From assembly GCA_965222225.1 (NCBI GenBank), contig CBDCTK010000002.1, positions 5,294,977 to 5,358,976 on the forward strand: DNA of 64,000 nt. The letters run 5' to 3'. Source of the DNA: Candidatus Poribacteria bacterium (lineage in GTDB: Bacteria > Poribacteria > WGA-4E > JAJDTR01). The translations under genes were made by a program, and so were the position numbers. Position 1 is the first letter of the stretch. Each line of letters opens with the position of its first letter. Below the pieces are notes generated by a model. That model made no database searches. It saw only the letters and a program-made list of their open reading frames with translations, and had not been told where the DNA came from. Shown one piece after another: positions 1,150 through 44,419 of this stretch.

Positions 1150-1226
1150 CTGTAGGAGCGATCTCCCGATCGCGACCTCCTGTTACGACAAAATTCAGGA
1201 ATCGCGAGCAAAACTCGCTCCTACTG
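1150..1226. repeat. Palindromic hairpin element, family copy 1 (CTGTAGGAGCGATCTCCCGATCGCGACC … TCGCTCCTACTG)
   Basis: A conserved 27-nt 5' module contains an inner perfect hairpin (GCGATC-TCCC-GATCGC). An outer 11-nt inverted repeat (ctgtaggagcg / cgctcctac(t)g) encloses about 50 nt. The same module recurs at 8685, 14476, 14674, 16069 and 44362. Confidence 0.75.
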
Positions 1227-1326
1227 AAAACGCACAGTGAACTGCAGTATTACAAACCGAAGTTTGTAAGTTTTATCTTCGGTTAGATTTACCAAACGTC
1301 TCAGCGTTTCACGCGGAAGAATCAGC

Positions 1327-2097
1327 ATGTTCGACTTACAGAACAGAGTTGCGTTCATCACCGGCGGAGCGCGTGGGATTGGACGCGGGTGCGCGCTTGA
1401 GATGGCAAAATGCGGCGCCGACATCGTCATCTACGACAAGGGGAATCGGGAGGCGGCAGCGGAAACCGTCGAAATGATTCGCCAAGTTGGCGGAGAGGCG
1501 ATTATTGTGGTTGGTGATGTTACTGATCGGAATGCTGTGGAGGCGGGCGTTCAACAAAGCATTGACCGTTTCGGCAAGATTGACATCCTCGTAAGCAACG
1601 CCGGAAGCAGTATCCGAAACCCATTTCTGGAACTCTCCGCTGAGGACGCCGCTCAAACGATTAATGTTTGCATGTGGGGAGTGTTCCATTGCACTCAGAT
1701 TGTTGCAAGGCACATGGTCGCGCGTGATGGAGGCGGAAAGATCCTAATCATCAGTTCCGTCCACGCCTTCATTCCGTTTGGGAATTCCGTTCCGTACAAC
1801 ACGGCGAAAGCGGGCATCATCAACATGGGAAACACAATAGCAACCGAGCTCGCACAACATCGCATCAACGTGAACGTCATTGAGCCCGGTTGGACGGACA
1901 CACCCGGAGAACGGAACTATTCGACCCGGGAGGAGCAGCGGGAAGGCGCGAAGAAATTACCTTGGGGACGGCTGGGAACGATTGAGGATATTGGGAAGTC
2001 GGCTGCGTTTCTGTGTTCGGACGCAGCCGACTACATCACCGGCGCCACGCTCCGCGTTGACGGCGGATACTGGTTGCCACGGTATCCGTCAGAGTAG
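1327..2097 (+). CDS. SDR-family oxidoreductase (3-oxoacyl-ACP reductase-like)
   Basis: TGGARGIGRG cofactor-binding motif. NAG and YNTAKAG (YxxxK) catalytic motifs. 256 aa. Confidence 0.85.
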   Translation: MFDLQNRVAFITGGARGIGRGCALEMAKCGADIVIYDKGNREAAAETVEMIRQVGGEAIIVVGDVTDRNAVEAGVQQSIDRFGKIDILVSNAGSSIRNPFLELSAEDAAQTINVCMWGVFHCTQIVARHMVARDGGGKILIISSVHAFIPFGNSVPYNTAKAGIINMGNTIATELAQHRINVNVIEPGWTDTPGERNYSTREEQREGAKKLPWGRLGTIEDIGKSAAFLCSDAADYITGATLRVDGGYWLPRYPSE

Positions 2098-2130
2098 AAG
2101 ACCATAGGATAGGTTGTCGAGATACTGCAC

Positions 2131-2209
2131 GATCAAGCGAGCGAATAGCGAGTGCGATAGAGATCCTAAGGCGATAGTAAATCCCTTAGTGAGGGCGATA
2201 GAAATCACC
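2131..2209. repeat. Intergenic degenerate tandem array (GATCAAgCGAgcGAATAG / GAGTGCGATAGAGATCC / GCGATAGTAAATCCC units)
   Basis: Three to four units of about 19-21 bp with the core GCGATAG-N3-ATCC. Same family as the arrays at 6968, 8513, 8953, 20711, 37571, 38007, 44705, 56955, 58279, 60150 and 60321. Confidence 0.8.
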
Positions 2210-2258
2210 TCATTGCGCGTCTCGAATCGGCTGTAACATTTGGATTTTTGAAATCGTA

Positions 2259-3335
2259 TTAAACCTCCGGTACCGGGACACGATAGGATTCGGCAATTTC
2301 TACCAAACGCTTCCAGGTTTTCTCTTCGATTGGAATCCCTTCCTTCATGCGTTGGGCGCGGCTATGCGCCTCAAATTCGCCGGGAACGTAGATTTCATCC
2401 ACGCCGGGAAGCCTGTTCGAGGATTTGACCCACTCAACCATATACTCTATCTCCTCGGTGTAGGTGTCGAGATCGATGAAATCCTGTATTTTCATGACAA
2501 TCATCACAATTCCGCTCCCGCCGCGAGTTGGTTCGTCGCGGCTGCACCCCGCCCATGAGAGTCCACCGGCAATTGCATCAATCATGAATCCCAAACCAAA
2601 ACCTTTATGCCCGAATTGGAAGCCCCCCAGCGGCATCACCGCCGTATCCTCTACCCTGTCATTAAACGCGCTCGGATCCGTAACCGGGTTACCCTCCGAA
2701 TCAATCATCCAGCCCTCCGGCATCTCCTGGTCGCGTGCCGATTTGATGGCGATTTTGCCGCCAGCCACGACGCTAAGCGTCATATCAAGCATTAGCGGTT
2801 CACCGTGCTTGCGAGGGACGGCAATCGCTATTGGATTGGGGGGCAACCGTCGTGAAGTTCCCCCGAACGGGTGCATGAAGCGGTTGCCGCCGTTGAGCAG
2901 GACGATACCAATCATCCCTTCCTCCGCAGCCTGAGGTGGGTAGGTTCCCATACGTCCGGCATGACCGCAGTTGTATAGCGCTACTGCTCCCAGCGTTCTC
3001 GATTTCGCCTTTTCGATGGCGAGATCCATGGCTTTCTTCGCCGCCACCATGCCAAGCGCATCGTTGACATTGATAACGGCGCTGGCGGGGGTTTCACGGA
3101 CAATTTCCATCCGCTCCTCCGACGGTCCCGCTTTCATCGTGTCTATGTAAAAATCGGTGCGCATCACGCCGTGCGAGTCGTGACCCATAAGATTGGAATC
3201 GCAGAGGTGATCGCTGACAATTCGCGCATCCTCCTCCACCGCGCCGACGTTGATATAGATGTTGTACACCATCTCCTTAAGTGCTGCGTATGGAACATGA
3301 ACCATAAAAATTTCTCCCTTCACAGTAGTAGGCAT
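2259..3335 (-). CDS. Ldh_2 family dehydrogenase (malate/L-lactate/ureidoglycolate/sulfolactate dehydrogenase type 2)
   Basis: 358 aa. N-terminal signature …DSNLMGHDSHGV…; the overall family pattern is recognised by eye only. Confidence 0.7.
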   Translation of the reverse strand: MPTTVKGEIFMVHVPYAALKEMVYNIYINVGAVEEDARIVSDHLCDSNLMGHDSHGVMRTDFYIDTMKAGPSEERMEIVRETPASAVINVNDALGMVAAKKAMDLAIEKAKSRTLGAVALYNCGHAGRMGTYPPQAAEEGMIGIVLLNGGNRFMHPFGGTSRRLPPNPIAIAVPRKHGEPLMLDMTLSVVAGGKIAIKSARDQEMPEGWMIDSEGNPVTDPSAFNDRVEDTAVMPLGGFQFGHKGFGLGFMIDAIAGGLSWAGCSRDEPTRGGSGIVMIVMKIQDFIDLDTYTEEIEYMVEWVKSSNRLPGVDEIYVPGEFEAHSRAQRMKEGIPIEEKTWKRLVEIAESYRVPVPEV

Positions 3336-3420
3336 ACTCCGTATGCCGTACTCCGCCTTCCTTGTAAAGTCCTAAAATAGGTTTACAGATTTTATTACGC
3401 ATTACTCTTCACGTATTACC

Positions 3421-3877
3421 CCTTAAATTACCGGCACGATTTCTACGTCCGAACGTTTGGCGAACTGATCAACCGCACCGTTGAAAACACCTCTGCTGCC
3501 ACGAACCAAATCCTCGCCGCGAGTCACGCTAAAGTTCTCATACGTCGTAGGATTGGGGTGAGACGAATTGGTTTCCTGAAAGTAGTGGGCAACAATGATT
3601 TTAGGCGTGACGTTCTCCTTGATTCAGGTTCGGGTTCCTGATACCAATTTCATTCATCAACTGTGTTAACTCCAAGTTGATTTAGGGCTTCCTTCAAAAG
3701 AAGATTTTTCAGTCCATCGGACCCGTACGTTCTATCGAAAAACTACACCGCGTCCTTGTTTTCGTCCAATCCTCTGCCACTCAACACTTCCCACAGATCC
3801 GCCGCAAAGACCTCTTGGGTGAGTCTTCCTTCTAAAATATCACTGTGCGGCACAGCAATTGTGTGGAAGGGATTCAT
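3421..3877 (-). pseudogene. Decayed gene remnants: a 44-aa N-terminal fragment (MNPFHTIAVPHSDILEGRLTQEVFAADLWEV…, stop after 44 aa) plus a downstream protein-like fragment (…IIVAHYFQETNSSHPNPTTYENFSVTRGEDLVRG…)
   Basis: Manual minus-strand translation gives clearly protein-like segments interrupted by stops. There is no intact ORF of 60 aa or more between the Ldh_2 gene and hepT. From memory the N-terminal motif resembles a defence-associated ATPase family (DUF499-like); this is unverified. Coordinates are approximate because the printed sequence line at 3781 is short. Confidence 0.35.
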
Positions 3878-3914
3878 TTGCGTAGCCCCTTAATCATCTG
3901 TTCAATCTTCAGCT

Positions 3915-4220
3915 TCAGAGCCGGCATATCTGATTGCACGATTTCCCAAACAATCTCAATATTGTGACATCGAAATATCCGTGAATGAGAATGTCTCTTA
4001 AGCCGGCAATTTTTCGCCACTCAACACTTGGATACTCCTCTCGAAGGGACTCAGGCACCTGTTTGACAGCTTCACCAATGACTTCAATGTTTTGGATAAT
4101 CGCGTCAAATCGCATCCGATCAGATTCAAACTCCGTGCGAGTGATTCCCTGCATGTACGCTTGAATTCGATTGATTGCTTCTAAAACATCTTCAAGGTAA
4201 ATCTCATAGTTTCGCGACAT
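3915..4220 (-). CDS. hepT: HepT-like HEPN toxin (DUF86) of a HepT/MntA toxin-antitoxin pair
   Basis: 101 aa. C-terminal R-x4-H-x-Y motif ([11 protein letters not shown]). Overlaps the upstream nucleotidyltransferase gene by 17 nt. Confidence 0.75.
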
Positions 4221-4527
4221 ATTCGACTTCTTTTTCGATGTGCGGTCTCAAACCCGGTTTGACAGAATTGGAAATCACCAGGTCAATCTTTTTTTCAAAC
4301 AAATCTTCAAGGAATATACGTAGCCCCATGTAATTATCGAATGACAGTTTCTTAAATTCTACGAGCAGGTCAATGTCACTGTCCTCGCGGGCCGCACCAT
4401 TGACATAAGAACCGAAGAGTCCAAGCCATTTCACACTGTATTCTTTCAGTGTACCTTGGTGCTTAAGAAGCGTCTGTTCAATTTCGTTTTTGGATAAGAT
4501 GCTTGGCTTTATCTTTTCCGTTTCCAT
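4204..4527 (-). CDS. mntA: MntA-like minimal nucleotidyltransferase antitoxin
   Basis: 107 aa. GS…D-x-D motif ([22 protein letters not shown]). Lies immediately upstream of, and overlaps, hepT. Confidence 0.75.
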
Positions 4528-4613
4528 CTCTGCTTTTCCGCGATTCTACCAGCCTAGCCTTCTTGCGCGTTGAGATAGTCAAATCTCCTCCACGGCGCGA
4601 GTCTGCGTCTACC

Positions 4614-6899: not shown

Positions 6900-6967
6900 A
6901 AAAAAGTTCGAAATCTCCTATCTCGTTTCTTTAATAACCCATGTTGCTACCTATCCTGTAAATCGGG

Positions 6968-8344: not shown

Positions 8345-8444
8345 GATTTTCCTCAATGGTGTAGAACTTTGGCAATTGACGGTGCAAAGCCTGGTCGTTT
8401 GGAAATTCAACGCGAAGAACACATCAATCGCTGCAGATCTTAAT

Positions 8445-8470
8445 TATACCATTTCGCTTGAATAACAGTG
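8445..8470. repeat. Leader module TATACCATTTCGCTTGAATAACAGTG (second copy at 14599..14624)
   Basis: 24 of 26 nt are identical between the two copies, and each precedes a GCGATAG-type array. Confidence 0.7.
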
Positions 8471-8512
8471 CATATGATGCCTAAATTATATCATTCACTT
8501 TCTCCGTAAGCG

Positions 8513-8665
8513 GGGATCAAGCGAGCGATTAAGTGAGTGGACAATGAACGATCAAACGACTGAAAAAGGAGTGCGATAGTAGACCCTGATAGAGATCCTT
8601 TATGGAGTACGATAGTAAATCCCACAAAGGACATGAATAGTGACTGCGATGGAGATTCCATAGAA
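8513..8665. repeat. GCGATAG/GATCAA-family intergenic array (about 7 units)
   Basis: gatcaagcgagcgattaagtg / gatcaaacgactgaaaaag / gagtgcgatagtagaccc / tgatagagatcc / gtacgatagtaaatccc / ctgcgatggagattcc. Confidence 0.8.
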
Positions 8666-8684
8666 ACACCGTTAGGCATGTCTT

Positions 8685-8753
8685 CTGTAGGGGCGATCTC
8701 GCAATCGCGACCTTCCCCGCTCCAGCGGAAATCAGGGGATTGTCAATCGCACC
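8685..8753. repeat. Palindromic hairpin element variant (CTGTAGGGGCGATCTCGCAATCGCGACC) with CGCTCCAGCGGA module
   Basis: 5' module variant of the 1150 family. The CGCTCCAGCGGA motif recurs at 8868 and 60143. Confidence 0.6.
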
Positions 8754-8952
8754 TTGAGATACTAGCGCGACGGCCTCATCACAGTGTTCTGAGAATCACG
8801 ATGAGGTCTTCGTGTCTTGCACTCCCGGAGGAGTGCTATGTTAGTAGAAAGTAGGCCTTCCCTTCTCGCGCTCCAGCGGAGCGGCATGTATATCCTTCGA
8901 TTGGCGAGCACGCAGGTTCGGTGTAATTGCTCCAACGATTCTCGGCTATGGG

Positions 8953-9157: not shown

Positions 9158-10123
9158 CTATCTCTTTTTAATCAGCTTCTGGAACGACCGAAGTTCACGA
9201 GGTGGATCCATTTGACTTCCGTAGTCGCTCCAAGAAACCTCCGCAACGTAAATATCACCCTTCGAGTCAACTGCGATTCCGTGCGGCGAATAAAACCGTC
9301 CGGGTTCATCACCGTAAGATTGGTCGCTCAATTGTGACAAAATATTGCCCTTGAGATCCATGATGGTTACGCGAGGACCTAGGTTGGTGCCGATACGATT
9401 ACTGCCAATTCCGCAGAAGTATTCTCCAACGTAAATCAGCGGTTCATCCTTCATGTCAATACAGATGCACGCCGCGCGCGACAAATTTACCCACTGCGTT
9501 TCGTATTTGCCGTTTGGGTCGAACACCTGTATTCGGTGATTCTCGCGATCCGCGATGTAGACCCAGCCGTCCTTGTCTACGACGATGTTGTGAACGATAT
9601 TGAATTGTCCCGGCCCCGTGCCAGATTCTCCCCAAGAAAACAGGTGTTTTCCATCCGGCGAAAATTTGTGCACCCGCGCATTCGCGTAACCGTCCGCGAC
9701 ATACAAACCCCCGTCGCGTGGATCAACTGCACTGTGCGTCGGCAAGTTAAACGGAATACCGCCCATTGCCGGTGAAGGCTTGTTCGCTTCTCCCAAGGTT
9801 AACAGCAGTTTTCCGTCGGGAGTAAACTTGCGAACCGTATGATCGCCATTGTCAACACAGTAGACCATGGCATCAGGTCCAATGGTTACCCCATGCGGAT
9901 TTCCGAATATACCGTCGCCCCACGTCCGGAGGACATTCCCGTCAGGGTCTAGTACGACCATTGGGTGAGTGCCGCGATTGAAGACGTAAACGTTGTCTTT
10001 TTCGTCCACGGCGACAGCGGTAGCTTCTTTGTAGGTCCAGTTCTCTGGAAGATTGCCCCAATCCTCCCCGGACGTTTCATAGCCATAATCTTCGTTGCCT
10101 AGAGTAACCATATCTTTCCTCAA
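9158..10123 (-). CDS. NHL-repeat six-bladed beta-propeller protein
   Basis: Repeated …Y(V/I)AD..N.R(V/I).(F/V)…DGK… blades (GNPHGVTIGPDAMVYCVDNGDHTVRKFTPDGK; YVADGYANARVHKFSPDGK; YIADRENHRIQVFDPNGK). Confidence 0.7.
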   Translation of the reverse strand: MRKDMVTLGNEDYGYETSGEDWGNLPENWTYKEATAVAVDEKDNVYVFNRGTHPMVVLDPDGNVLRTWGDGIFGNPHGVTIGPDAMVYCVDNGDHTVRKFTPDGKLLLTLGEANKPSPAMGGIPFNLPTHSAVDPRDGGLYVADGYANARVHKFSPDGKHLFSWGESGTGPGQFNIVHNIVVDKDGWVYIADRENHRIQVFDPNGKYETQWVNLSRAACICIDMKDEPLIYVGEYFCGIGSNRIGTNLGPRVTIMDLKGNILSQLSDQSYGDEPGRFYSPHGIAVDSKGDIYVAEVSWSDYGSQMDPPRELRSFQKLIKKR

Positions 10124-10183
10124 CTTTAAGATGTTCTATTGATCCCCATCTCGTATTGTGGACGGGGCTCAAGATGCGTTCAA

Positions 10184-11023
10184 TCAACCCGTTGCCGGGT
10201 GAGTGAGACCGAGAGTCTGACGCGCCTCGTCGGGCGTTGCGACTTCACGCTGCAACTGCTCCACCAAATTGGCGGCGACTTCAACCATCTCAGCATTGCT
10301 TTTGAGCAGTACCCCGCGACGCAGATAGATGTTGTCCTCAAACCCGACGCGGATGTGACCGCCCAATAGGATACCCATCGTAATCATCGGCAACTGCGTT
10401 CGGCCAACCCCCAAAACGGACCATTGTGCTTTTGGTGGCAACTGTTTTACCATAGCCAGTAGATGCTCCGGCGTGGCTTCAATCCCCCACCCGGCGCCCA
10501 TGCACAGTTGGATAAATAACGGTTCATCAAACAATCCCTCATCAATCAACTGCTGCGCTTGCGCCATGTGACCCATATCAAACACTTCGATTTCGGGTTT
10601 GACGCCGTATTCCCGCATCCGCTTTGCCGCGGCGCGTCCCCACTCCGGCGGATTGAGAAACACGCCATCCCCAAAGTTCATTGACCCCACATCAAGTGAA
10701 CACAACTCGGGTTTTAAGGTCACCGGCTCAAGGCGTTCTTCGATGATGTTTTTGCCCGGTATATTTCCGCCGCTCGTCGTGAGGTTGATTGCAATATCGC
10801 ACCCCTCCCGAATTCGGTCGACCACCTCTTTGAAGAGTTCAATCCTTGAGCACACGATGCCGGTCTCGGGATCACGAACATGGATGTGAGTAATCGCCGC
10901 CCCCGCTTTGCAACATTCGATGGCTGCCTCTGCGATCTCCTTTGGGGTGTACGGCACAGCCGGATTCTTGTCCTTCATGGGGCCTGAGCCGCACACTGCC
11001 ACCGAGATAATAGTCTTCTCCAT
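10184..11023 (-). CDS. BKACE-family beta-keto acid cleavage enzyme (3-keto-5-aminohexanoate cleavage enzyme-like, DUF849)
   Basis: N-terminal [44 protein letters not shown] signature. 279 aa. Confidence 0.75.
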
Positions 11024-11253
11024 AATCTCTCACTTCCAATCAGATTGCAAAGATGGCCGAAGTCTACCCAAGCATCCACCGCACCGCCGGTGCTAAAGGC
11101 ATAGGTTGCTTCCGATACTATACACCTGACGCACCGCTAGAACCAAAGAGAGGGTATCCCCCAATCTTCCATCTTCCCAGTCTTCCACCCTTGCCCCGCC
11201 TTGGAAAGATTTGATTGACGCTATTTATACACTGCAAATATAGAGAAATGGTA

Positions 11254-12105
11254 TTAATTCTTGACCATTCCGCCGTCAACATTCAAAGTTTGGCCCGTGA
11301 TGTTCATCGCATCTTCGGAGACCAGAAACGTCACAGCGCGTCCGAGATCTTCTGCCATCTGCTCCCGTCGCATAGGAGTCGCACGGAACATGTCGGGGTA
11401 TTTACCGTGGGCAATACCGACGAACCATTCTCTGGAGTCTTGCCCCTGAAATTCTGGAATGTTCTCCACCATCCGTTTTGAGATGCCTTTCCACGCATCC
11501 GTATATACGATGCCGGGGCAAACGCAATTCACGTTGATGTTATGTGGTCCTAGTCGTTCCGCGAGCGTCTGGGTGTAGCTAATCAAACCCGCCTTCACCG
11601 CACAGTAGGCTGGCGGGACGAAACGCTCCATGTTCTTGGCTGATGGCGTAAACCGACCAGCTATCGACGAGACGTTCACAATCTTCCCGCTGTTTTGTTC
11701 TATAAAATGTGGTGCGACAGCTTCACACATCAGAACCGATGCCCTGAGGTTCTGTTCGTAGGTGCCATCCCACAGCGCTTCAACATTTGCGAGCGGTCCC
11801 GAGCCGACCACTTTTGGCGTTGCGCGTCCGCCGCCCACATTGTTAACAACGATGTCAATCTTGCCGCACGCGTCAAGCGTTTTCTGAACCACACGCAAGA
11901 TTGTATCCGCTGTCGTAATGTCGCCCGGCATGGCAACGGCTTTGCGGCCGATTGCCCGCACCGCATCGGCAGTGCTGTTTGTTGTTTCTTCGCGGAAGGA
12001 ACTCACGACGACATCAGCGCCTTCCTCGGCGAGACAAAGCGCAATGGCGCGGCCAATCCCCCGTCCCGCAGCGGTTACGATAGCTACTTTTCCTTCCAAT
12101 TTCAT
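11254..12105 (-). CDS. SDR-family oxidoreductase
   Basis: MKLEGKVAIVTAAGRGIGRAIA… glycine-rich NAD(P)-binding motif and the YxxxK pattern. Confidence 0.85.
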   Translation of the reverse strand: MKLEGKVAIVTAAGRGIGRAIALCLAEEGADVVVSSFREETTNSTADAVRAIGRKAVAMPGDITTADTILRVVQKTLDACGKIDIVVNNVGGGRATPKVVGSGPLANVEALWDGTYEQNLRASVLMCEAVAPHFIEQNSGKIVNVSSIAGRFTPSAKNMERFVPPAYCAVKAGLISYTQTLAERLGPHNINVNCVCPGIVYTDAWKGISKRMVENIPEFQGQDSREWFVGIAHGKYPDMFRATPMRREQMAEDLGRAVTFLVSEDAMNITGQTLNVDGGMVKN

Positions 12106-12139
12106 GGCATACCTCTCTCGTTACCAATCTTTGCTCGCC

Positions 12140-13258
12140 CTAAGCTGTCCCGGAAGATTCGAACACGACAAGCGATCTTGCCACATTTCCCTTTTCCAAC
12201 GCGTCGAAACCCGTGTTAATCTCGGACAGTGGCAAACGCATGCTAATCATTTCGTCAAGTAGCAATCGCCCATCCATATACAGATTTGCCAATCGCGGAA
12301 AGTCCACTCGTGGACGGCTCATACCGTAAGACGTGCGCACGATTTCACGTTCACCCATCAGGATATGGAACGGCAACGTGACCTCTTCCCCGAAAGGCGT
12401 CTTGCCGAGTAGGACAATCCTCGCGCCGGGGCGTGAGGCTTCGAGTGTCTGTCGAATCGAGATATTCTGACCAGCGGCTTCAATCGCATAATCGGCACCG
12501 CGCCCATCGGTTAGCTCGCGTACAAACGCGACGGGGTCATCTTGTGTAGCATCCACAACATGTGTCGCGCCGAATTTTCGAGCCCATTCCAATTTCAGGG
12601 GATTGACATCTACCCCCACGATAATTGAGGCGCCGGAGATACGAGCTCCTTGCACGGCACTAAGTCCCACGGCGCCGCAACCACTCACCACGACGCTAGT
12701 CTCCGGTTTAATGCGGGCGGCATGAACGGCGCCCCCATATCCTGTCATAACCGCGCATCCAAGCAATGCCGCCCGGTCCAATGGAAAGTCCTTCCGCAAC
12801 GGCACCGCTGCCTGCTCCGGGATGACGTTATACTCCGCGTGTGACGACACAAGGCTGTAGTAATAGACCGGCTCCCCGTCAAGTGACATGCGCGTTGTCC
12901 CGTCGAATAGAACCCCCTTGCCACCGGCGGACTTCGCCACCTCGCACAGAATAGGTTGACCGTGATCGCAGTAAAAACAGTGACCACAATTGGGGCTCCA
13001 TGAACACGCCACGTGGTCGCCGACTTTCACCCGCGTAACTCCCGGACCAACGGATTCAACCACACCTGCGCCTTCGTGACCAATTACGGCAGGTAGGTTC
13101 ACCGGCTGGTAGCCGTGCATGGTCTCCCAGTCCGTGTGGCAAAGTCCGCTGGCGGCGATTTTCACGCGAACCTCGCCTGGACCCGGATCTGCAATTTCAA
13201 GCTCTTCAACTGAGAGCGTGCTAGGCGTTGAGTGCAGCACGGCGGCTTTCATTTTCAT
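12140..13258 (-). CDS. Zinc-dependent alcohol dehydrogenase (MDR family, class III/formaldehyde dehydrogenase-like)
   Basis: GLCHTDWETMHG, GHEGAGVVESVG and GxGxxG (VSGCGAVGLSAVQGA) motifs. Confidence 0.85.
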   Translation of the reverse strand: MKMKAAVLHSTPSTLSVEELEIADPGPGEVRVKIAASGLCHTDWETMHGYQPVNLPAVIGHEGAGVVESVGPGVTRVKVGDHVACSWSPNCGHCFYCDHGQPILCEVAKSAGGKGVLFDGTTRMSLDGEPVYYYSLVSSHAEYNVIPEQAAVPLRKDFPLDRAALLGCAVMTGYGGAVHAARIKPETSVVVSGCGAVGLSAVQGARISGASIIVGVDVNPLKLEWARKFGATHVVDATQDDPVAFVRELTDGRGADYAIEAAGQNISIRQTLEASRPGARIVLLGKTPFGEEVTLPFHILMGEREIVRTSYGMSRPRVDFPRLANLYMDGRLLLDEMISMRLPLSEINTGFDALEKGNVARSLVVFESSGTA

Positions 13259-13370
13259 GGTGGTCGTTCTCCTTATGTCGAAACGGGTAGCGTTTTGAGG
13301 TATTGGAGTTCGCTCACACCTTCAAATATCCTAATATGCTTCATCTTTCGGTAGCTATGTACCAGACGTA

Positions 13371-14264
13371 TTATTCAGCCGCGGACGGTGTCCACGATTT
13401 CAACTGCTTCCGCCAGACCCGATCTACCTCACCCCGAATCGCCTGTACATCCTCCCAGCGGTCTCCGAACACAGACAGGAAATAGCCTCCCGACCCCTGC
13501 TCCGGACAAACAAACATCTCCCTGCCCGGTTCAGCCGCTTGCATCCAACACTCAATGACCTGCTCGGCGAATTCTAGCCAATCCAGAAACTCCGGCGTGA
13601 ACTTCCCACCTCGTCCAAGTGCGGGCACTTGGCAATGATGACCATTAAACGGTCGAAAATGGAACTGCTGCGCATACTGGATAAGGTCTGTCCGCTCCGC
13701 CAAGCGATCCCAGTAAGGCGGTGAAAGGTGTTTGATGACTGCCGGATGCGAGAAATCCCACGTCATTTTCAGTAGGCGGTTCTCCGCCTTTTCAAATCCC
13801 TCCGCCAGTGCATAAGCCTTCTCTGGGGTCTCGGTGCACGTGTCGCGGTGAACCTCAATGGCGACATCCATCTCCAACTCGTCTGCTGTCTCCATCACCC
13901 GTCGCGCTACAAACAGCGCACGTTCGGTTGGAGTGTCATGGTCGAGCAACTGCACATTCACGCATCGCGCGTTAGCATCTTTAATCGCCCTGAGCTTCGG
14001 ACAAATCTCCTTTGCGTTTCCTATATCCACGGTGGCTGCGAAGAGAAGTCCGTGTTTTTCGACATGCTCGGCGGTGATATCAGGCACCCGTCCGCAAAAT
14101 CCATCAAAGCCCGCCTTCTTGATCCGCTTAATTTTCTGGTCGATCGACCATTCTCCCTTCTTCCCGCCGTAGTCGGTCAACGTCCAAAGGGTAGCCATGT
14201 GCTGAATCTTCGGCCGATTGATTTTCTTTAAATCATCGTTTTTCCCGTTATCCTTAGCCATCAA
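13371..14264 (-). CDS. Sugar-phosphate isomerase/epimerase (xylose isomerase-like TIM barrel) family protein
   Basis: Pattern recognised by eye only (…AGFDGFCGR…, multiple E/D/H metal-ligand positions). Confidence 0.45.
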   Translation of the reverse strand: MMAKDNGKNDDLKKINRPKIQHMATLWTLTDYGGKKGEWSIDQKIKRIKKAGFDGFCGRVPDITAEHVEKHGLLFAATVDIGNAKEICPKLRAIKDANARCVNVQLLDHDTPTERALFVARRVMETADELEMDVAIEVHRDTCTETPEKAYALAEGFEKAENRLLKMTWDFSHPAVIKHLSPPYWDRLAERTDLIQYAQQFHFRPFNGHHCQVPALGRGGKFTPEFLDWLEFAEQVIECWMQAAEPGREMFVCPEQGSGGYFLSVFGDRWEDVQAIRGEVDRVWRKQLKSWTPSAAE

Positions 14265-14475
14265 TCTCTCCTTAAGTGTATGGAACCTTTCAATGCCTCG
14301 TAACTGCGACTGAGCTATTCGTATCTATCGTTGCCCACGTTGGAAAATTCGACTTCAAAAATTATAACATCTTTCCGAAAAGTTAAGAATAAAAATCGAC
14401 AGATGCCATAAAGCCATCCACCTGCTAGAGGTTTGGGAATCTTCAATCATCAAATCGACAATGGAATCTTCACAG

Positions 14476-14502
14476 ATGCAGGTCCCTGTAGGAACGATCT
14501 CG
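14476..14502. repeat. Palindromic-element 5' module variant (CTGTAGGAACGATCTCGCGGTCACGAC)
   Basis: Diverged copy of the 1150 family module. Confidence 0.5.
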
Positions 14503-14598
14503 CGGTCACGACAATTTAATTGCAGGTGTACAAGCAGAATGGGCACCTGCAACTTCGGCCACGTTAATAAACCGCCGAAAATATCCGCTGTTAATAGC

Positions 14599-14698
14599 TA
14601 TACCATTTCGTTCGAATAACAGTGGATAGAGCGAAATAACTATTTCGTTAGGACTTATGCGATGGAGCATCCGGTAGGAGCGATCTCCGAATCGCGAC
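14599..14698. repeat. Composite repeat: TATACCATTTCG leader module, then a GCGATGG unit, then a palindromic-element 5' module (GTAGGAGCGATCTCCGAATCGCGAC)
   Basis: Juxtaposes modules from both repeat families. Confidence 0.7.
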
Positions 14699-14940
14699 TT
14701 TAATTCACGCCATTGATGCACTGTCATTTAGAGAATTGGTGTTATCACTGTTTTTTCCTATTCCTATCTGGTATAATTTTCATAACTTGGGCACACTCCT
14801 TGATGCCCGATGAATCGGGCTACTATAGGCTGGAGCGCGTAAGTCCTAGACCGCTCAAGATATAGTAGAAATAGCATTTGCCACTATAACTGAAATAGAG
14901 ATTTACAATTCGTAGCTAGACCCACAGGAAAACGAAAAGC

Positions 14941-16032
14941 ATGAAAGCGACAATTGCAGTATTGGAAGGCGACGGAATCGGTCCCGAAATCATGGCAGAA
15001 GGTCTCAAGGTCCTTGATGCCATAGCAGCGCGATACAACCACGATTTTGAATATAAACGATGCGCGTTCGGTGCCGCTGCGTATTTCACCACGGGATCGG
15101 CATTTCCGGACCAAACCCGTGAAGTATGTGATGAGGCAGATACCATCATCAAGGGGCCCGTTGGGATTGCCGTTCGAGAAATGAACCGAATTCCTACCGA
15201 GGAACGACCTGAGTTGGCGGTATTGGAATTGCGAGAACGATACACGACCTTCGCCAATTATCGCCCCGTAAAACTACCGTCATCTTTGGCTAGCTTCTCG
15301 CCACTGCGTGAGGATCGTTTGGGAGCAGGCATCGACATTCTCATGATCCGAGAACTCACGGGGGATATATACTTCGGTAAAAAGCGGGAGGGAAAGGACA
15401 CCGGAATGCAATTTGCCCAAGACGATTGTGTCTACACGGAGGAGCAGATTCGGCGTGTTGCAACGACTGCCTTTGAAGAGGCGCGGGCTCGGAACGTGCA
15501 GCTCACCAACGTTGATAAAGCGAATATACTTGCCACCTCAAGGTTCTGGCGCGCAATTGTGGAGGAAACCGCCCGCTCATTTCGGGAGGTGCCGCTTCAG
15601 CACGTGTTGGTGGACAATGCAGCCTACCAACTCGTCATCGATCCGACACAGTTCAACGGCGTGATGTTACTTGGCAATATGAACGGTGACATTTTGAGCG
15701 ATGAAGCGGGAGGAATCATCGGATCCCTCGGACTTATGCCATCAGCCTGCGTGGGCCCTGAGAAAGTTTTCGTGGAACCCGTGCACGGTGCGGCACCGGA
15801 CATTGCGGGTACGGGACAAGCTAATCCTTATTCGATGATTGGCAGCGCCGCCCTGATGCTTGAAAAAGGACTTGGGCTAAACGAGGAATCTAATCTGATC
15901 TGGGACTGCCTATTTGGTGTTTTTGAACAAGGCTATGTTACGGCCGAGCTTGCCGCGGCGGTGAAACGGGGAACGGTACTTTCTACGTCGGAGTTTGGGG
16001 ATCGCGTAGCAAGCGCGATACAAACGGCTTAA
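14941..16032 (+). CDS. leuB: 3-isopropylmalate dehydrogenase-like (isocitrate/isopropylmalate/tartrate dehydrogenase family)
   Basis: MKATIAVLEGDGIGPEIMAEGLKVL N-terminus and the IRE(L)TGDIYFG motif. 363 aa, typical of LeuB or tartrate dehydrogenase. Confidence 0.7.
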   Translation: MKATIAVLEGDGIGPEIMAEGLKVLDAIAARYNHDFEYKRCAFGAAAYFTTGSAFPDQTREVCDEADTIIKGPVGIAVREMNRIPTEERPELAVLELRERYTTFANYRPVKLPSSLASFSPLREDRLGAGIDILMIRELTGDIYFGKKREGKDTGMQFAQDDCVYTEEQIRRVATTAFEEARARNVQLTNVDKANILATSRFWRAIVEETARSFREVPLQHVLVDNAAYQLVIDPTQFNGVMLLGNMNGDILSDEAGGIIGSLGLMPSACVGPEKVFVEPVHGAAPDIAGTGQANPYSMIGSAALMLEKGLGLNEESNLIWDCLFGVFEQGYVTAELAAAVKRGTVLSTSEFGDRVASAIQTA

Positions 16033-16068
16033 GTTCTGCGGTTTGACAAATCACTTGGCGTTCTTCGG

Positions 16069-16091
16069 TGGAGCGATCTCCGAATCGCGAC
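16069..16091. repeat. Palindromic-element 5' module (GGAGCGATCTCCGAATCGCGAC), partial
   Basis: Lies immediately downstream of the leuB-like stop. Possibly a terminator or stability hairpin. Confidence 0.6.
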
Positions 16092-16155
16092 TTCAATTCC
16101 TCCCAGTGATTCAGAGCAACTGCCACTTGAATCTCCACGGTTCAACCGACAAATG

Positions 16156-17001
16156 TTATCGCTTAGTCGCTAATTCACGTTTTAGCCGTTTGGCGTTCTC
16201 AATCTTAACCTCGAATTGTCGTAAATCACTAGCCTTTTCAAGAAAGAGATTCAGATACAATTGGGTCATGGACGCATTGCCCTCCTCCTTGTACAACTGA
16301 CTGAGCCGGTAATAGACCTCCGGATCCGTCGAGTCGAGCGACAACGCCTTTTCATACGTGCGAATCGCTTGATTCAATCGTCCCGAATCTTGAAACGCTT
16401 CGCCCAAGCTAACATGCGCATCCGCGTCGCTTTGATCTAGGCTGATTGTCCTCTCGTAATTCTCGATAGCAACCTCAAACTCTCCCCGCGCGTGCTGAGC
16501 CACCGCCAAATTATAATAGGCATCTTGGAATTCCGGGTCAATTTCGATTGCCCCACGATAGGCTTTGACCGCTTCTTCAAATTCGCCCTCACTGTCGTAA
16601 GCGTATCCCAAATTGTTATAGAACACTGGATTGTCCGGCTCCACCCGAATCGCCTCCCGGAACGCTTTAGTCGCCTCATCATTTAGCCGCAAACTTAGGT
16701 ATACCAATCCAAGGTGGTTATGAGTTTTCGCGTTCTCGTCATCAAGGCTCACCGCCGTCCGGAATGCCTCAATCGCTTTATCGTGCTCGCCCAGATCATG
16801 GTAGGTTTTCCCGAGTTGAAAGTGTCCCTCCGCGTCCTCCGGCGTTAAACCCATTCCCATTCTAAGTTTGAACGCTTCGCGTTTAAGTTGCTCTTGCCGT
16901 TGCGTGGCTTCATCGGGAGGCTGGCAACCTGAGAATATGAGCCAGGCGCTGAGCATAATACGAATCGAGGTGTGTAGTCGACTGAACGATGGCGAACGCA
17001 T
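16156..17001 (-). CDS. TPR-repeat lipoprotein
   Basis: Signal peptide with a lipobox-like LIFSGC. Multiple 34-aa TPR units (…AIEAFRTAVSLD…, …AIENYERTISLD…). Confidence 0.7.
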   Translation of the reverse strand: MRSPSFSRLHTSIRIMLSAWLIFSGCQPPDEATQRQEQLKREAFKLRMGMGLTPEDAEGHFQLGKTYHDLGEHDKAIEAFRTAVSLDDENAKTHNHLGLVYLSLRLNDEATKAFREAIRVEPDNPVFYNNLGYAYDSEGEFEEAVKAYRGAIEIDPEFQDAYYNLAVAQHARGEFEVAIENYERTISLDQSDADAHVSLGEAFQDSGRLNQAIRTYEKALSLDSTDPEVYYRLSQLYKEEGNASMTQLYLNLFLEKASDLRQFEVKIENAKRLKRELATKR

Positions 17002-38130: not shown

Positions 38131-38272
38131 ATAGGTACGTAGCAGGCAACAATTAAGACATGGAAGAACTTCCCACAAATGACCAAAAATGGCTTTCCTA
38201 TCGATTATTCAAACAGGTTCTAAACGAAGACCGGGGGAATGGATGCAGAGAATTGCAACTCGCCTCAATTCC

Positions 38273-39034
38273 CTACCATGTTGCGAAGTCCCTGAGAAAT
38301 AAGACTACCTCTGCTGTAATGGCGTTCAGTAAAGATTCGCCCTTTTCCGCAGTCGCGTGTTGAGGTCCTCCCATTGCGCCGGTTGGTGTCCAAGTATTCA
38401 TCCGTTTGGCGACATTGACTCGCCCGCCCTGTTCGCTATGGAAGAACGGCGAGTCCACTAGAGGGGGGCTTGACGTGACTCTGTCCATCCGCATAATCTC
38501 GCCGTGCAACGATAACATCATGGAGGTCTCGTATTCGCAGGCGTGTGATAACTGTTTCGTCTGCATGCCGTGGTTTTCCGCCGCCATGACGGGCGATGCG
38601 ACTGACCAATAGGACGCCAGTGCCATCCAGAGATTGTTGTACACTTCGGATTCGGTAGACAACTCCGTAATCGCCTGTGTGCCTGGAATGACATTGCCGC
38701 CGTGACCGTTCAGGAAGAAAATCCGTTGAAATCCCGCTTTGCTAATAGAACGTACGATGTTCTTAATGATTAATGTATAAACATGATTGGGAACGCTCGT
38801 CGTTCCGGGCAAATCAAGATGATGATCTGATGCGCCAAGCCACAGCGTCGGTAGAAAGTACGTCTGCTCACGAAGCTCTTGTTCGACACGTTCGGCGACC
38901 ACGGTGACCAAATACGTGTCCGTTAGGAGCGGGGAATGGTGGCCGTGCTGCTCCATTGAACCAAGCGGAACCACAACAACTTTATTCTTGTCCGCTTGCT
39001 CAATATCCACCCAACAACCATCACCATATTTCAC
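38273..39034 (-). CDS. Creatininase-family amidohydrolase
   Basis: …VVVVPLGSMEQHGHHSPLLTDT… metal-binding signature. 253 aa. Confidence 0.75.
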   Translation of the reverse strand: MKYGDGCWVDIEQADKNKVVVVPLGSMEQHGHHSPLLTDTYLVTVVAERVEQELREQTYFLPTLWLGASDHHLDLPGTTSVPNHVYTLIIKNIVRSISKAGFQRIFFLNGHGGNVIPGTQAITELSTESEVYNNLWMALASYWSVASPVMAAENHGMQTKQLSHACEYETSMMLSLHGEIMRMDRVTSSPPLVDSPFFHSEQGGRVNVAKRMNTWTPTGAMGGPQHATAEKGESLLNAITAEVVLFLRDFATW

Positions 39035-39101
39035 AGTATCTTTCCTCCTCGCCCACGTTCGAGGGCGCGATTAAATTTCATCGTGTGTCGCAACACGCAT
39101 T

Positions 39102-40907: not shown

Positions 40908-41083
40908 AATTTTATCCTTGCATTCTAGACTGGACGTTAGGAATCTGGAGCTTATTAGTGGTTTTCGTTACTCAAGAAAATGAGATGGATTTATGTGAAA
41001 ATGCGTTCAATTGCGTTCAATACAGATAGCTTATTCTAAAAAAATGGGACCGTAAATGCCGTTTGAATTCCAAAGCGCGATTG

Positions 41084-41914
41084 TTAGCGGCTAACCCGCT
41101 TACGTCTTCCCGCAACATGCGATGCTGGGACGCCTACCTCCTCCACAGGACTGGAAGACCTCCGTGCAGTTCCATAAATAATCCAACTACCAACGATTGC
41201 CAATGCAATACTAATTAGTTGTGCTGTCGTCAACCCGGCGATGACACGCTCACTCGCCCGCCAGAACTCGGCAATGAAACGTTCAACTCCCGCCGCTACA
41301 AGTCCCGCGCCCACCAGCCACCCGGCTATCCCCTCTTTCTTTTTACGGATTGACCATAGTAGTGCAAAACCGACGAGCGACAATCCAAATTCATACAGGG
41401 GCGTTGGGTGAACGGGCACGTTTATGGGAACCGTGCCTCTTGGAAATGGCATTGCCCAAGGCAAATCCGATGGCGGACCATAGTCACCATCCCCAGAGAG
41501 GAAACATCCGATTCGTCCAATGCCATATCCGAGTAAAAGTAGAGGAGCAAGAGCGTCAAGCGTTGGCAAGAGAGGGTCGGAAGATCGATGTATGACCCAG
41601 ATCGCGGCTGCAAACCCTCCAATTAGACCACCATACCACACAAGCCCGCTGTTTGAGAACAATTCTCTTAATGAAAGGCTGCCATCTTGCAGGGATGAAT
41701 AAAGTTTTGCGCCAATGATACCGCCTAAAGCGCCCCATAAAATAATAGATGAGGCAAGCCTAGGCTCAAGTCCTTTTCGTTTGAACTCGCGTTGCCCCAT
41801 ATACATACAAGTAAGGAAGGCAAGCGCCATCATCAACCCATAACTGTGTACCGCTATAGGTAGGTGGATCGGGCCAAGGTGTAGGGTTGGTAACTCAAAT
41901 ATGGTTGGATACAT
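41084..41914 (-). CDS. lgt: Prolipoprotein diacylglyceryl transferase
   Basis: Lgt signature (…VHPTPLYEFGLSLVGF…), the G-x-R-x-G pattern and a polytopic membrane topology. 276 aa. Confidence 0.85.
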   Translation of the reverse strand: MYPTIFELPTLHLGPIHLPIAVHSYGLMMALAFLTCMYMGQREFKRKGLEPRLASSIILWGALGGIIGAKLYSSLQDGSLSLRELFSNSGLVWYGGLIGGFAAAIWVIHRSSDPLLPTLDALAPLLLLGYGIGRIGCFLSGDGDYGPPSDLPWAMPFPRGTVPINVPVHPTPLYEFGLSLVGFALLWSIRKKKEGIAGWLVGAGLVAAGVERFIAEFWRASERVIAGLTTAQLISIALAIVGSWIIYGTARRSSSPVEEVGVPASHVAGRRKRVSR

Positions 41915-42264
41915 GATTCATCACGAAAAAGAGAGATGGTTGTCTCATTCACCCGCAGCAACATCTTTTAAAGGTAGGCAAAACATCCAAAGCACAACCG
42001 AAACTGTGTGCTAAAATCCTAATATCCACCCAAACCGCTACTGCGCCATTAGAATATTCGACCCCCTAAAAAATGTCAAGCAGAATCTCGCTCCTAATTC
42101 GTCTGTTTTTTTTGAAAAAGGCTTTGCAAACTTTTCTGAAATGTGCTATACTTGGCGCATCCAACTTCCGAGAGACGCTAGGAGCGTTATACCGCAAGGG
42201 TTTTCCTCTGTTTTGTAGTATTCTCTGCAACGTGCCTCAGGTATTGGAAAGGGTAGCAGCATTT

Positions 42265-43137
42265 ATGACTCGACGGGAACTCTGGTTGGCGCTTGCATCG
42301 GTTGAAGGCATCGGCCCGATTCGAATTAATCGGCTCTTGGCTCGCTTTGGAAGCGTGGAAAAAGTTTTTGATGCCGAATGCTCGGAAATCGCTTGTCTTC
42401 CGCTTTTCAATCCGGTTTTAGCGTCGCGTGTTTTGGAAACTCGAGAGCGCCTCGGTAAATTTCGACGCCAAATGGAGTGGCTCAAGAGTCAAGGCGTTGA
42501 GGTTTTGTGCTTGGAAGATGCAAATTACCCTGATAAGTTGAGGGTCATTTCCAACGCTCCGCCAATTCTTTATAAAAAAGGTAAATTGACGGGAGTCAGT
42601 CGGAAGGCTATAGCAATCGTTGGTTCGACTCAGCCGACACAGATGGGCATTCTGACAACCTTGGAGTTGTCGAAGTCTCTCGCTCAGGCAGGTTTCACGG
42701 TTGTTAGTGGCTTTGCCAAGGGGATTGACACTTCTGCCCATTTTGGCGCGCTTTCGGTGGGTGGAAAGACCGTGGGGGTGTTTGGTGGGGATCTTTTTTC
42801 GATATACCCCACAGAAAATCGACCGCTTGCAGCGCAAGTTTGTAAAAGTGGCATGCTCCTGTCTGAACATCCGTTTGATAAGCGGCCCACACCCGCAAAT
42901 CTAATTCTACGTAACCGAATTATCAGTGGGCTGTCAATTGCGACAATTGTAGTTGAAGCCAGAGAAAACGGCGGCGCGGTGCGCACGGCAGGCTATGCCC
43001 TCGAACAAGGACGTGCGGTTTTCGCTTACGACTGGCAAAAAAGTCATCGCTTGAGCGAGGGCCCTCGCCATCTTCTTCAACGAGGGGCAATACCAATCAC
43101 TCTTGGACGGCTGAGGATATTCAGAATCGTCTATTAA
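42265..43137 (+). CDS. dprA: DNA processing protein DprA/Smf
   Basis: The N-terminal SAM-like region (LALASVEGIGPIRINRLL) and Rossmann-like DprA domain (AIVGSTQPTQMGILTTLELSKSLAQAGFTVVSGFAKGIDTSAH) support the call. The start is inferred at MTRRELW and the longest ORF begins at 42073. Confidence 0.85.
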   Translation: MTRRELWLALASVEGIGPIRINRLLARFGSVEKVFDAECSEIACLPLFNPVLASRVLETRERLGKFRRQMEWLKSQGVEVLCLEDANYPDKLRVISNAPPILYKKGKLTGVSRKAIAIVGSTQPTQMGILTTLELSKSLAQAGFTVVSGFAKGIDTSAHFGALSVGGKTVGVFGGDLFSIYPTENRPLAAQVCKSGMLLSEHPFDKRPTPANLILRNRIISGLSIATIVVEARENGGAVRTAGYALEQGRAVFAYDWQKSHRLSEGPRHLLQRGAIPITLGRLRIFRIVY

Positions 43138-43532
43138 ATCCGGAACTGTTCACGGAGCAACCGAGGAATAGTTCTCTAGTTGAGCAAATGGAACTGTTTT
43201 AGGAGGTGTTTTTGAAGACTTAAGAACTTCGGTAGGCAAAAAATTTGGAAAAATGTGCAGGTTTTTCTTTACAACAATCGGAAATTCTGGTAGACTATAA
43301 TCTACCTTGCACGAATTAAGTCAAAAACATGCGGATGCTTGGTTGATTGAAAGCATTACAACACTTGGCATGTTCTTGAGGTTTGACATTGGCGCTGCTG
43401 CTAACGGGATTGAAAATCTATTGAATACTTCACCCTTCGGGCACATATGCCGATTTTGATTGCGAGGACTGATTTAGGCTGTCTAGCTAAACCTAGATGT
43501 TTTTATACGCAAATTAAAAAGGAGTAGAAATA

Positions 43533-44171
43533 ATGCACAAGCTCTTTCGAACCTTAGCTTTGGTAATGACTGCGATGTTGGTTTCCTACGTAGTTGGATG
43601 CGGTGGTGGTGAGACGGAACCGGATGGTCCTGCGTCGGCTACGACCGTTACGGCTGATCCACCGAGTGGATCTACGGTTCCGTCAAATGCCGTAATCAAG
43701 CTTACCCTCGATCAGGCGGTTGATGCTGTTGCAGGCGCAACGGGCTCAGGGAAAAACTGGGAGGTTGCGGCGGCCGGTAACTTGAGCGTGACTTGGACCA
43801 ACAAGGATGGATCTGCTGGAGGACCTGAGACCTTCACCTACACGCTTCAAGCTCCGGATAATGATGCGCCGAAGATTACCGGCGGCACGGTAACCAATGG
43901 AGCTAAAGATGTTGATCCCGGACCTATAAATGCGGATAAGATTCAAATCACGTTCGATGAGGATGTTACCGGTACAGCCGAATTGAACTTTGAGGACAAT
44001 ACATCTGCTGGTTGGCAAGGGGCGGTTACGGGCATGAATGCCGAACTTACCCCTGTTGCAGGGAAGGAACTCGCCAACTCGGTGACCTATGTAGTCGTGC
44101 TCAACGTTAGCGATAAGGCAGGGAATAAGGCTGCGTTCATGGTCGAGTTTACTACCAAGGCAAAAGAATAG
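43533..44171 (+). CDS. Lipoprotein with Ig-like (BIG/SbsA-type) beta-sandwich domains
   Basis: Signal peptide with a lipobox (VVGC|GGG) followed by T/G/S-rich beta-strand repeats. 212 aa. Confidence 0.55.
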   Translation: MHKLFRTLALVMTAMLVSYVVGCGGGETEPDGPASATTVTADPPSGSTVPSNAVIKLTLDQAVDAVAGATGSGKNWEVAAAGNLSVTWTNKDGSAGGPETFTYTLQAPDNDAPKITGGTVTNGAKDVDPGPINADKIQITFDEDVTGTAELNFEDNTSAGWQGAVTGMNAELTPVAGKELANSVTYVVVLNVSDKAGNKAAFMVEFTTKAKE

Positions 44172-44210
44172 GTGTTTTAGCCACCCGGTTCGTTGAAATG
44201 CTGTTTTCAA

Positions 44211-44245
44211 GGCAACACGTTATAGAACGTGTTGCCTTTTTTTGT
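44211..44245 (+). terminator. Rho-independent terminator after the lipoprotein gene
   Basis: GGCAACACG … CGTGTTGCC stem followed by TTTTTTT. Confidence 0.75.
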
Positions 44246-44361
44246 TCCATTTTCAAGAGAAAGCTGCACATTCTGAGGCTATAGTCATGTCCATTCATGT
44301 GTACCCATATTAATGAGAGAAATTAGCGACTTGATTGTTGAAGATTGTTACGACAAACTTA

Positions 44362-44419
44362 CTGTAGGAGCGATCTCCCGATCGCGACCGCCTGTCGCTA
44401 GGAAAGCTCGCTCCTACAG
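44362..44419. repeat. Palindromic hairpin element, compact copy (CTGTAGGAGCGATCTCCCGATCGCGACC … CTCGCTCCTACAG)
   Basis: Perfect 11-nt outer inverted repeat. The 5' module is identical to the 1150 copy. Confidence 0.8.

Follow-up and report, generated by a model that had tools for sequence, protein, structure and literature searches.

Hairpin repeats between the genes of a Candidatus Poribacteria contig: a probable family of GTAG-tagged REP elements

What are the short hairpin repeats that recur between the genes of a 64,000-nucleotide (nt) stretch of a Candidatus Poribacteria bacterium (contig CBDCTK010000002.1, positions 5,294,977 to 5,358,976; hereafter the window, numbered from its first letter), and how did they arise? 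A sequence-only reading of this stretch had described a nested-palindrome hairpin in complete and partial copies and had offered more than one identity for it: an element resembling either repetitive extragenic palindromes (REPs) or the miniature inverted-repeat transposable elements (MITEs), or else a family of RNA-stability or terminator hairpins, in any case distinct from the cyanobacterial repeat HIP1. We conclude that the repeats are probably a GTAG-tagged REP family of Candidatus Poribacteria, of the design known as 'GTAG-1', derived from mobilisation of single-stranded DNA (ssDNA) of the type carried out by REP-associated tyrosine transposases (RAYTs).

The repeat copies themselves are borne out. 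The 28-mer CTGTAGGAGCGATCTCCCGATCGCGACC occurs exactly at 1150-1177 and 44362-44389 and, in a scan of the window, with three mismatches at 8685-8712, while the number of matches expected in shuffled sequence is 0. A repeat-family search of the window places copies at 14486, 14672 and 16065 with these; a seventh listed member, at 52357, has 65% identity and looks like a chance match. The copy earlier placed at 14476 is present but starts at 14486 and is degenerate (GTAGGAACGATCTCGCGGTCACGAC). Similarly, the inner hairpin GCGATC-TCCC-GATCGC is perfect, as had been claimed, in the two complete copies only, the other copies having GCGAT-CTCCGA-ATCGC or variants. The outer 11-nt inverted repeat is perfect in the second complete copy (44409-44419) but has one mismatch in the first (CGCTCCTACTG at 1216-1226). 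This inverted repeat exists, but it does not close a nested palindrome: it is the GTAG head and half-stem of a second, inverted REP, read on the minus strand as GTAGGAGCGAGTTTTGCTCGCGAT (1224-1201) and GTAGGAGCGAGCTTTCCTAGCGAC (44417-44394), with the stem GCGAG/CTCGC. As the outer repeat is the head of an inverted unit (type C, below), the 'complete copies' are REP doublets and the copies described as carrying the 5' module only are REP singletons.

From all copies, listed with their flanks, we found that the unit is 25 nt long and comprises an unpaired GTAG, the dinucleotide GA, a stem of 5-6 bp, a loop of 4-6 nt, the return stem and a final GAC. The dominant type, A, is GTAGGAGCGAT-CTCCGA-ATCGCGAC; type B, GTAGGAGGGAA-CTCCGA-TTCCCGAC, usually lies inverted 14 nt after an A unit; and a third type, C, is GTAGGAGCGAG-CTGT(G)-CTCGCGA(C/T). 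Types A and B have the same head, loop and tail (the loop is CTCCGA in 166 of 191 A units and 141 of 150 B units), and the four positions at which they differ make up two exactly compensatory base-pair swaps. CT stands directly 5' of GTAG in 125 of the 191 A units. The stems seen include GCGAT, GGGAA, GCGAG, GCGAC and GGGGT, and the A units of the window doublets carry a CCCG variant, which makes the stem 6 bp and the loop 4 nt long. The window has eight units in 64 kb (two A-C doublets, three singletons and one decayed unit) and no B unit; its features are as follows, with HH denoting a head-to-head pair.

1150-1226, plus strand: REP doublet 1, an HH heterodimer whose GTAG tags lie outside; 77 nt long if the CT and TG at its flanks are counted; DNA fold -19.8 kcal/mol, z = -6.1.
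1152-1176, plus strand: A-type unit GTAGGAGCGATCTCCCGATCGCGAC; GTAG, GA, 6-bp stem GCGATC/GATCGC, loop TCCC, GAC.
1177-1200, no strand assigned: spacer of doublet 1, 24 nt, with a 5-bp stem of its own (TCCTG at 1178-1182, CAGGA at 1196-1200); includes GTTACGACAA.
1201-1224, minus strand: C-type unit GTAGGAGCGAGTTTTGCTCGCGAT, stem GCGAG/CTCGC; near-identical to Pseudomonas class PF18.
8687-8711, plus strand: singleton of a variant A type, GTAGGGGCGATCTCGCAATCGCGAC; intact stem, altered tag region and loop; directly after an array of heptads of the window's first repeat family.
14488-14512, plus strand: decayed unit GTAGGAACGATCTCGCGGTCACGAC with 4 of 6 stem pairs left; the region is not alignable with the related locus L009.
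14674-14698, plus strand: A-type singleton of consensus sequence, GTAGGAGCGATCTCCGAATCGCGAC, centred in a palindromic shell of about 170 nt (about 14600-14745); kept at the orthologous site in L009.
16067-16091, plus strand: A-type singleton with a decayed tag (GGTGGAG, one A lost); core 22/22 identical at the orthologous site in L009.
44362-44419, plus strand: REP doublet 2, an HH heterodimer of 58 nt with a perfect 12-bp closing stem; identical in strains L122 and L123.
44364-44388, plus strand: A-type unit GTAGGAGCGATCTCCCGATCGCGAC of doublet 2.
44394-44417, minus strand: C-type unit GTAGGAGCGAGCTTTCCTAGCGAC with one stem mismatch, 5 nt from the A unit.

The 10-mer GTTACGACAA of the doublet 1 spacer (1182-1191) recurs 15 nt to the left of doublet 2 (44347-44356) and has one other match in about 1 Mb of related DNA.

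Several counts support this architecture. The pattern GTAGGA-N16-GA[CT], which selects on head and tail only, has 216 matches in about 1.0 Mb, against 9 for each of the N14 and N17 controls. Within the window, a perfect hairpin follows GTAG in 8 of 314 cases, compared with 0-3 for most permuted tags and 6 for TAGG, which overlaps GTAGG. Among 51 distinct sequences, 38 changes affect both sides of the stem, where shuffling gives 12.2 +/- 2.9 (none of 500 shuffles reaches the observed number), and the covariation score is 0.312 against 0.114; double changes occur at all six pairs, and controls with the pairing slid along the unit all score lower. Pair 8-21, for example, is CG in 27 sequences, GC in 11 and UA in 2, and pair 11-18 is UA in 21, AU in 9 and CG in 6. 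The folding check proposed for the full copies was made: both doublets beat their shuffles as RNA (z = -5.5 and -4.9) and, as DNA, again fold far better than shuffles (z = -6.1 and -4.8).

The family extends well beyond the window. Scanning a collection of one genome per species with GGRGCGATCTCNNNATCGCGAC gave at least 119 stretches, with about 50 assemblies among the matches listed, and a scan of JGI sponge metagenomes gave at least 120; the two sets of seeded loci, 1.83 Mb in all, contain 484 units. Chromosome OZ244563.1 accounts for at least 11 stretches among the matches listed. Of the roughly 50 assemblies, again among the matches listed, 44 are labelled as Candidatus Poribacteria metagenome-assembled genomes (MAGs); the other hosts are two 'uncultured bacterium' sponge MAGs, one Pseudomonadales MAG (L007), whose A unit is identical to that of the window, one Gammaproteobacteria MAG and one Klebsiella-labelled contig. 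The earlier distinction from HIP1 stands, as GCGATCGC occurs twice in the window where 1.98 occurrences are expected. Given that nearly all related loci among the matches listed are from Poribacteria and that HIP1 is not enriched, the cyanobacterial frame in which the repeat had been set is wrong. The units and their pairs, including tail-to-tail (TT) ones, are distributed as follows.

Genome loci and window, about 1.0 Mb: 244 units (A 163, B 69, C 12).
Pairs in genome loci and window: HH A-B 43 (gap mode 14), TT A-B 25 (gap mode 16), A-A tandems 12, HH homodimers 0.
JGI sponge metagenomes, 0.82 Mb: 240 units.
Pairs in JGI sponge metagenomes: HH A-B 62, TT A-B 7, A-A tandems 1, HH homodimers 2.

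Taken together, the two sets hold 105 HH A-B heterodimers against 2 homodimers, together with 32 TT A-B pairs, and the units of a doublet stand at a fixed spacing of 14 or 16 nt. In the first set, of about 1.0 Mb, open reading frames (ORFs) of 120 aa or more make up 77% of the bases but contain only 10 of the 244 units (4.1%). A units also form head-to-tail arrays, as at about 4100-4430 of L042, where the period is 38 nt and the heads alternate between GTAGGAGCG and GTCCGAGCG.

These properties are those of a known class of element. GTAG-tagged REPs are small stem-loops (20-40 bp), mostly extragenic and usually present in more than 100 copies per genome; in the GTAG-1 and GTAG-2 groups an unpaired dinucleotide separates the tag from the stem, and a conserved 3-bp motif stands at the far side (Di Nocera et al. 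2013). The same authors describe HH and TT dimers, heterodimers whose partners differ in their stems, alternative stem residues that are complementary to each other, and dimers lying inside long palindromes; these dimer, stem and nesting features are all seen in the Poribacteria units. The likeness is closest to the GTAG-1 REPs of Pseudomonas (classes PF18, PF10 and PF11 of the P. fluorescens complex and the 35-bp REP of P. putida), which have the same unpaired GTAG, GA linker, short GC-rich stem and 3-nt tail, are likewise extragenic and form doublets and arrays, and have a head (GTAGGAGCGA) and tail (TCGCGA) identical to those of the Poribacteria A unit. The Poribacteria C unit (GTAGGAGCGAG-CTGT/TTTT-GCTCGCGA) differs only in its loop from PF18, GTAGGAGCGAGCyyGCTCGCGA, one of the Pseudomonas REP classes listed by Nunvar et al. 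(2013). By contrast with the Pseudomonas REPs, however, the host is a member of the Poribacteria rather than of the Gammaproteobacteria, the A and B stems contain AT pairs (GCGAT, GGGAA) and enclose the 6-nt loop CTCCGA, nearly all doublets are A-B heterodimers whose spacer is 14 nt long, and no flanked RAYT was found in 1.85 Mb.

Other systems share individual features. In the bacterial interspersed mosaic elements (BIMEs) of E. coli and the GTAG-24 heterodimers of P. aeruginosa, doublets likewise form only from two subtypes that differ in stem or loop, so that each doublet makes a long hairpin with fixed mismatches (here C.C, T.T, A.A and G.G); the unit sequences are different, and the Poribacteria subtypes differ by two compensatory swaps and share their loop. 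REPINs (Bertels & Rainey 2011) also place two inverted REPs in one hairpin, the proposed replicative unit, whereas the window copies are fixed at orthologous sites and the Poribacteria likeness is one of structure, with no RAYT linkage found. The GTAG-15 dimers of Anabaena variabilis resemble the present doublets in occupying the middle of longer palindromic shells, and the small dispersed repeats of cyanobacteria resemble them in inserting into one another, although the present host is no cyanobacterium and HIP1 shows no enrichment in the window. A literature search found no publication linking Poribacteria with REPs, and we therefore file the family as a known kind of REP in a new host: it is ordinary in kind, and its novelty lies in the host phylum and in some details. 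The suggestion of a REP-like dispersed hairpin family is thus borne out by size, tag, covarying stem, extragenic location and dimers.

How such units spread is known from other bacteria. TnpA(REP) cleaves single-stranded REP DNA at CT and needs the folded hairpin, the GTAG and bases of the loop, and RAYT genes are flanked by inverted REPs. By analogy with this established REP/RAYT biology, the Poribacteria units would be non-autonomous ssDNA elements, made and spread by a RAYT/TnpA(REP) tyrosine transposase of the HUH type that would bind the folded hairpin, read the GTAG tag and the loop, and cut at the adjacent CT; any effect on mRNA 3' ends or on DNA structure would be secondary. No direct repeat flanks either 1150-1226 or 44362-44419, and the absence of a target-site duplication is as expected for Y1/HUH transposition. 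All the cis determinants (tag, linker, covarying stem, constant loop and the CT 5' of the tag), together with this absence, point to a RAYT-type ssDNA origin.

Two sets of results weigh against this interpretation, the first of which concerns the enzyme. The proposed check for a RAYT gene was made by tblastn with an approximate RAYT consensus and the L096 protein described below, with a hidden Markov model built from 120 homologues and run against 14,043 ORFs, by inspection of ORFs between units 300-1600 nt apart, and by clustering all ORFs for recurrent neighbours. No RAYT was found in the window or beside any of the 484 units contained in 1.85 Mb of Poribacteria DNA centred on REPs, and the Y1_Tnp genes that were found (L096/L120/L121 and L040) are flanked by other repeats. 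One REPtron per few hundred units would predict about three to be found, so the absence is mildly informative, not decisive. Weak RAYT matches in L186 and L223 were rejected, as they lie inside ileS on the wrong strand.

The Y1_Tnp genes are of two kinds. The first is a conserved, RayT-like gene of 188 aa linked to CRISPR-cas loci of Poribacteria, lying between cas2 and cas1 in L096 (5953-6519, minus strand), after a split cas1 in L120 (4001-4567) and between a WYL regulator and cas6 in L121 (4001-4567). It is flanked by a palindrome of its own (GAAACCGAGTTTTGAAGAAAAAACTCGGTTTC, aGAAACCGAGTTTT(GAAG)AAAAAACTCGGTTTCt), which is also present in L021, L034, L045 and L056; homologues with 60-70% identity occur in many other assemblies, and P0004 and P0008 show Y1 transposases in CRISPR-cas loci like that of L096. 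The second is an IS200-like Y1 gene of 157 aa in L040 (441-914, minus strand), followed at 1000-1400 by a tandem array of CACTCCAGCGGAGTGCTATGTCTATAGAA type. Fragments of the CACTCCAGCGGAGTGCTATGTCTATAGAA motif (GCTCCAGCGG, GGAGTGCTATGTTAGTAGAA) also lie beside the window REP at 8687 (8716-8730, 8826-8850 and 8868-8885).

The second set of contrary results concerns mobility. Locus L009 (CBDDPW01) is syntenic with the window over 9158-16461 at about 87% identity, and this species, 13% diverged, has units 14674 and 16067 at orthologous sites, the latter with a 22/22 core despite an adjoining 46-nt indel. Two near-identical strains, L122 and L123, whose contigs were found through the Big_5 neighbour of doublet 2, carry that doublet unchanged; the SDR protein, used in the same way, gave no record. 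Presence/absence polymorphism of units was not seen in this very small sample (L009, L122, L123). The unchanged doublet 2 and the units at orthologous L009 sites make the window copies look old and fixed, and most of them look like old, vertically inherited residents. The leuB-like gene of the window is bracketed by direct A units (14674 and 16067), an arrangement kept in L009 (6044 and 7650). The 25-mer is also 100% identical in L040 and L011, whose orthologous genes share about 66% nucleotide identity with the window; a letter-perfect unit at such gene identity argues for continued constraint or homogenisation.

There is also a bolder version of the REP account, in which a phylum-wide REP system, with a letter-perfect unit and obligate A/B heterodimers, is kept without a locally linked RAYT; we regard this version as possible but doubtful. 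In it, types A and B, with their shared loop, tag and tail and two compensatory stem pairs, look like distinct termini, left and right, of a minimal transposon of ssDNA, and the B-unit loop would be a precise landing place for other small repeats. The enzyme at work could be a Y1 transposase that acts in trans and is possibly domesticated, such as that of the CRISPR-cas loci, or one of an unrecognised kind.

The best-surviving alternative is that the units are host cis-elements acting in RNA, as stabilisers of 3' ends, exonuclease barriers or terminators, and are kept by selection. REPs have been reported mostly downstream of genes and as possible RNA elements, the doublets fold strongly as RNA, some stem pairs are G-U, and the unit 35 nt past the leuB-like stop is conserved 22/22 in L009, where the DNA on either side has diverged or carries the indel. 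The gene context in the window is mixed. Every copy reads on the plus strand and lies between long ORFs, the neighbouring genes encoding a UvrD-like helicase, an SDR protein, a beta-eliminating lyase, an NHL-repeat protein, an Iso_dh/leuB-like dehydrogenase, a TPR protein and a Big_5 protein. The copy at 1150 is 58 nt past the stop of the UvrD-like ORF and 101 nt ahead of the SDR gene, and unit 16067 is the one 35 nt past the Iso_dh/leuB-like stop; the copy at 44362 lies between convergent genes. An RNA role fits poorly, however, with units 14486/14488 and 14672/14674, which lie between divergent genes, and with unit 8685/8687, which lies between two minus-strand genes and is antisense to both. 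The terminator reading in particular is not supported, as no T-run (U-run in RNA) follows any unit and the doublets were not called in a terminator scan; its sole, weak terminator-like match to a unit, at 14680, is between divergent genes, and a canonical terminator (44209-44245, a 13-bp hairpin followed by T7) lies 124 nt before doublet 2 and already closes the upstream gene. In Rfam nothing in the window reached the gathering thresholds; at 44300-44480 there were only spurious miRNA-hairpin matches, which scored far below them. An RNA role would also leave unexplained the invariant unpaired GTAG, GA and GAC, the strict A-B heterodimers and the tandem arrays of L042. We consider it improbable as the primary explanation, although a side role in stabilising mRNA or binding protein is possible.

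Somewhat more improbable still is that the motif is selected as a binding site for a chromosome-structuring or regulatory protein, as IHF or gyrase have been proposed to act at BIMEs; such selection would account for conservation of the sequence throughout the phylum. The identity of the 25-mer in L040 and L011, the fixed doublet spacing and the reports of BIMEs and REPs as protein-binding sites are consistent with such sites, but nothing here identifies the protein, and stem covariation around a constant loop and tag indicates that a folded single strand rather than duplex DNA is recognised; such a role is in any case compatible with a REP origin and usually secondary to it.

That the doublets are MITEs, internally deleted derivatives of DDE-transposase insertion sequences (IS) moved via terminal inverted repeats, is very improbable: inverted termini of 11-12 nt are present, A-B doublets of other genomes lie inside longer palindromic shells (TTATAGTG...CCACTATAA), and one shell adjoins a truncated IS630-like helix-turn-helix (HTH) ORF in L010, but neither doublet has a target-site duplication, singletons, TT pairs and tandem arrays of units are common, the 'terminal repeat' is itself a GTAG-tagged hairpin unit, and the IS630-like fragment occurs once in 1 Mb, so that we rejected an IS630-derived MITE, which rests on that single truncated HTH fragment.

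The REP units are embedded in a landscape of other repeats. The shell around unit 14674 had first the appearance of a conserved block of about 170 nt that might serve as a leuB leader or attenuator; as the block is also present in loci without a nearby leuB (L023, L045, L046 and L112), we rejected this and take it as a dispersed palindromic shell, ATACCATTTCG..CAGTGCATA / TATGCACTG..GAAATGGTAT, with a single central A unit (14600-14745 in the window). A further copy at 8440-8712 is without its right arm and has the first-family heptad array between the left arm and the REP. A-B doublets often lie within a longer palindrome, TTATAGTGaA..TTTACAC [doublet] GTGTAAA..CCACTATAA, for example at 1510-1655 of L010 and in L026, L074 and L105. 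A shell of another type, CTGTGAATCAACGCC-hairpin-GGCG [doublet without GTAG] CGAC-hairpin-GACGTTGATTCACAG, is found in L015, L022 and L024. The loop of the B unit (GGGAATC|GGAGTTCCC) carries inserted small repeats in L078, L115, L008, L118, L020 and L034, either a 'caaatcaa..acggtatgaa + hairpin' element or arrays of the window's first repeat family, and looks like an insertion hot spot.

Further GTAG-tagged hairpin families lie on the plus strand of the window at 3328, 5864, 20667, 37964 and 44500-44520 (GTAGGCATACTCCGTATGCC, GTAGGCGGGGCATCTTGCCCCGCC, GTAGGGTGGGCACTGCCCACC, which occurs twice, and GTAGGGGACGGCCCC...); the GTAGGGGACGGCCCC hairpin at 44500-44520 differs from strains L122 and L123 by a 10-nt indel. 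Near 44-49 kb the GC skew turns from negative to positive, and genes that were mostly on the minus strand give way to genes mostly on the plus strand; a replication origin there was considered but is not established, as no cluster of DnaA boxes was found. The window has no tRNA genes.

The Poribacteria, an uncultured phylum of sponge symbionts, are a new host group for GTAG-tagged REPs, and one REP design (GTAGGAGCGA...TCGCGA) is common to them and Pseudomonas. In practical terms, the units mark intergenic DNA, can break assemblies, and explain spurious small ORFs in Poribacteria MAGs, such as that of the peptide "SRLSRRSVAIRRSLLQ" across an L010 doublet. The strict A-B rule, the compensatory swaps and the B-loop insertions make the family a clean natural data set for the study of REP doublet recognition. 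These findings leave the current picture of REP biology unchanged; if the bolder version of the REP account were true, the near-identity with Pseudomonas would imply that a REP-RAYT pair has been transferred across phyla.

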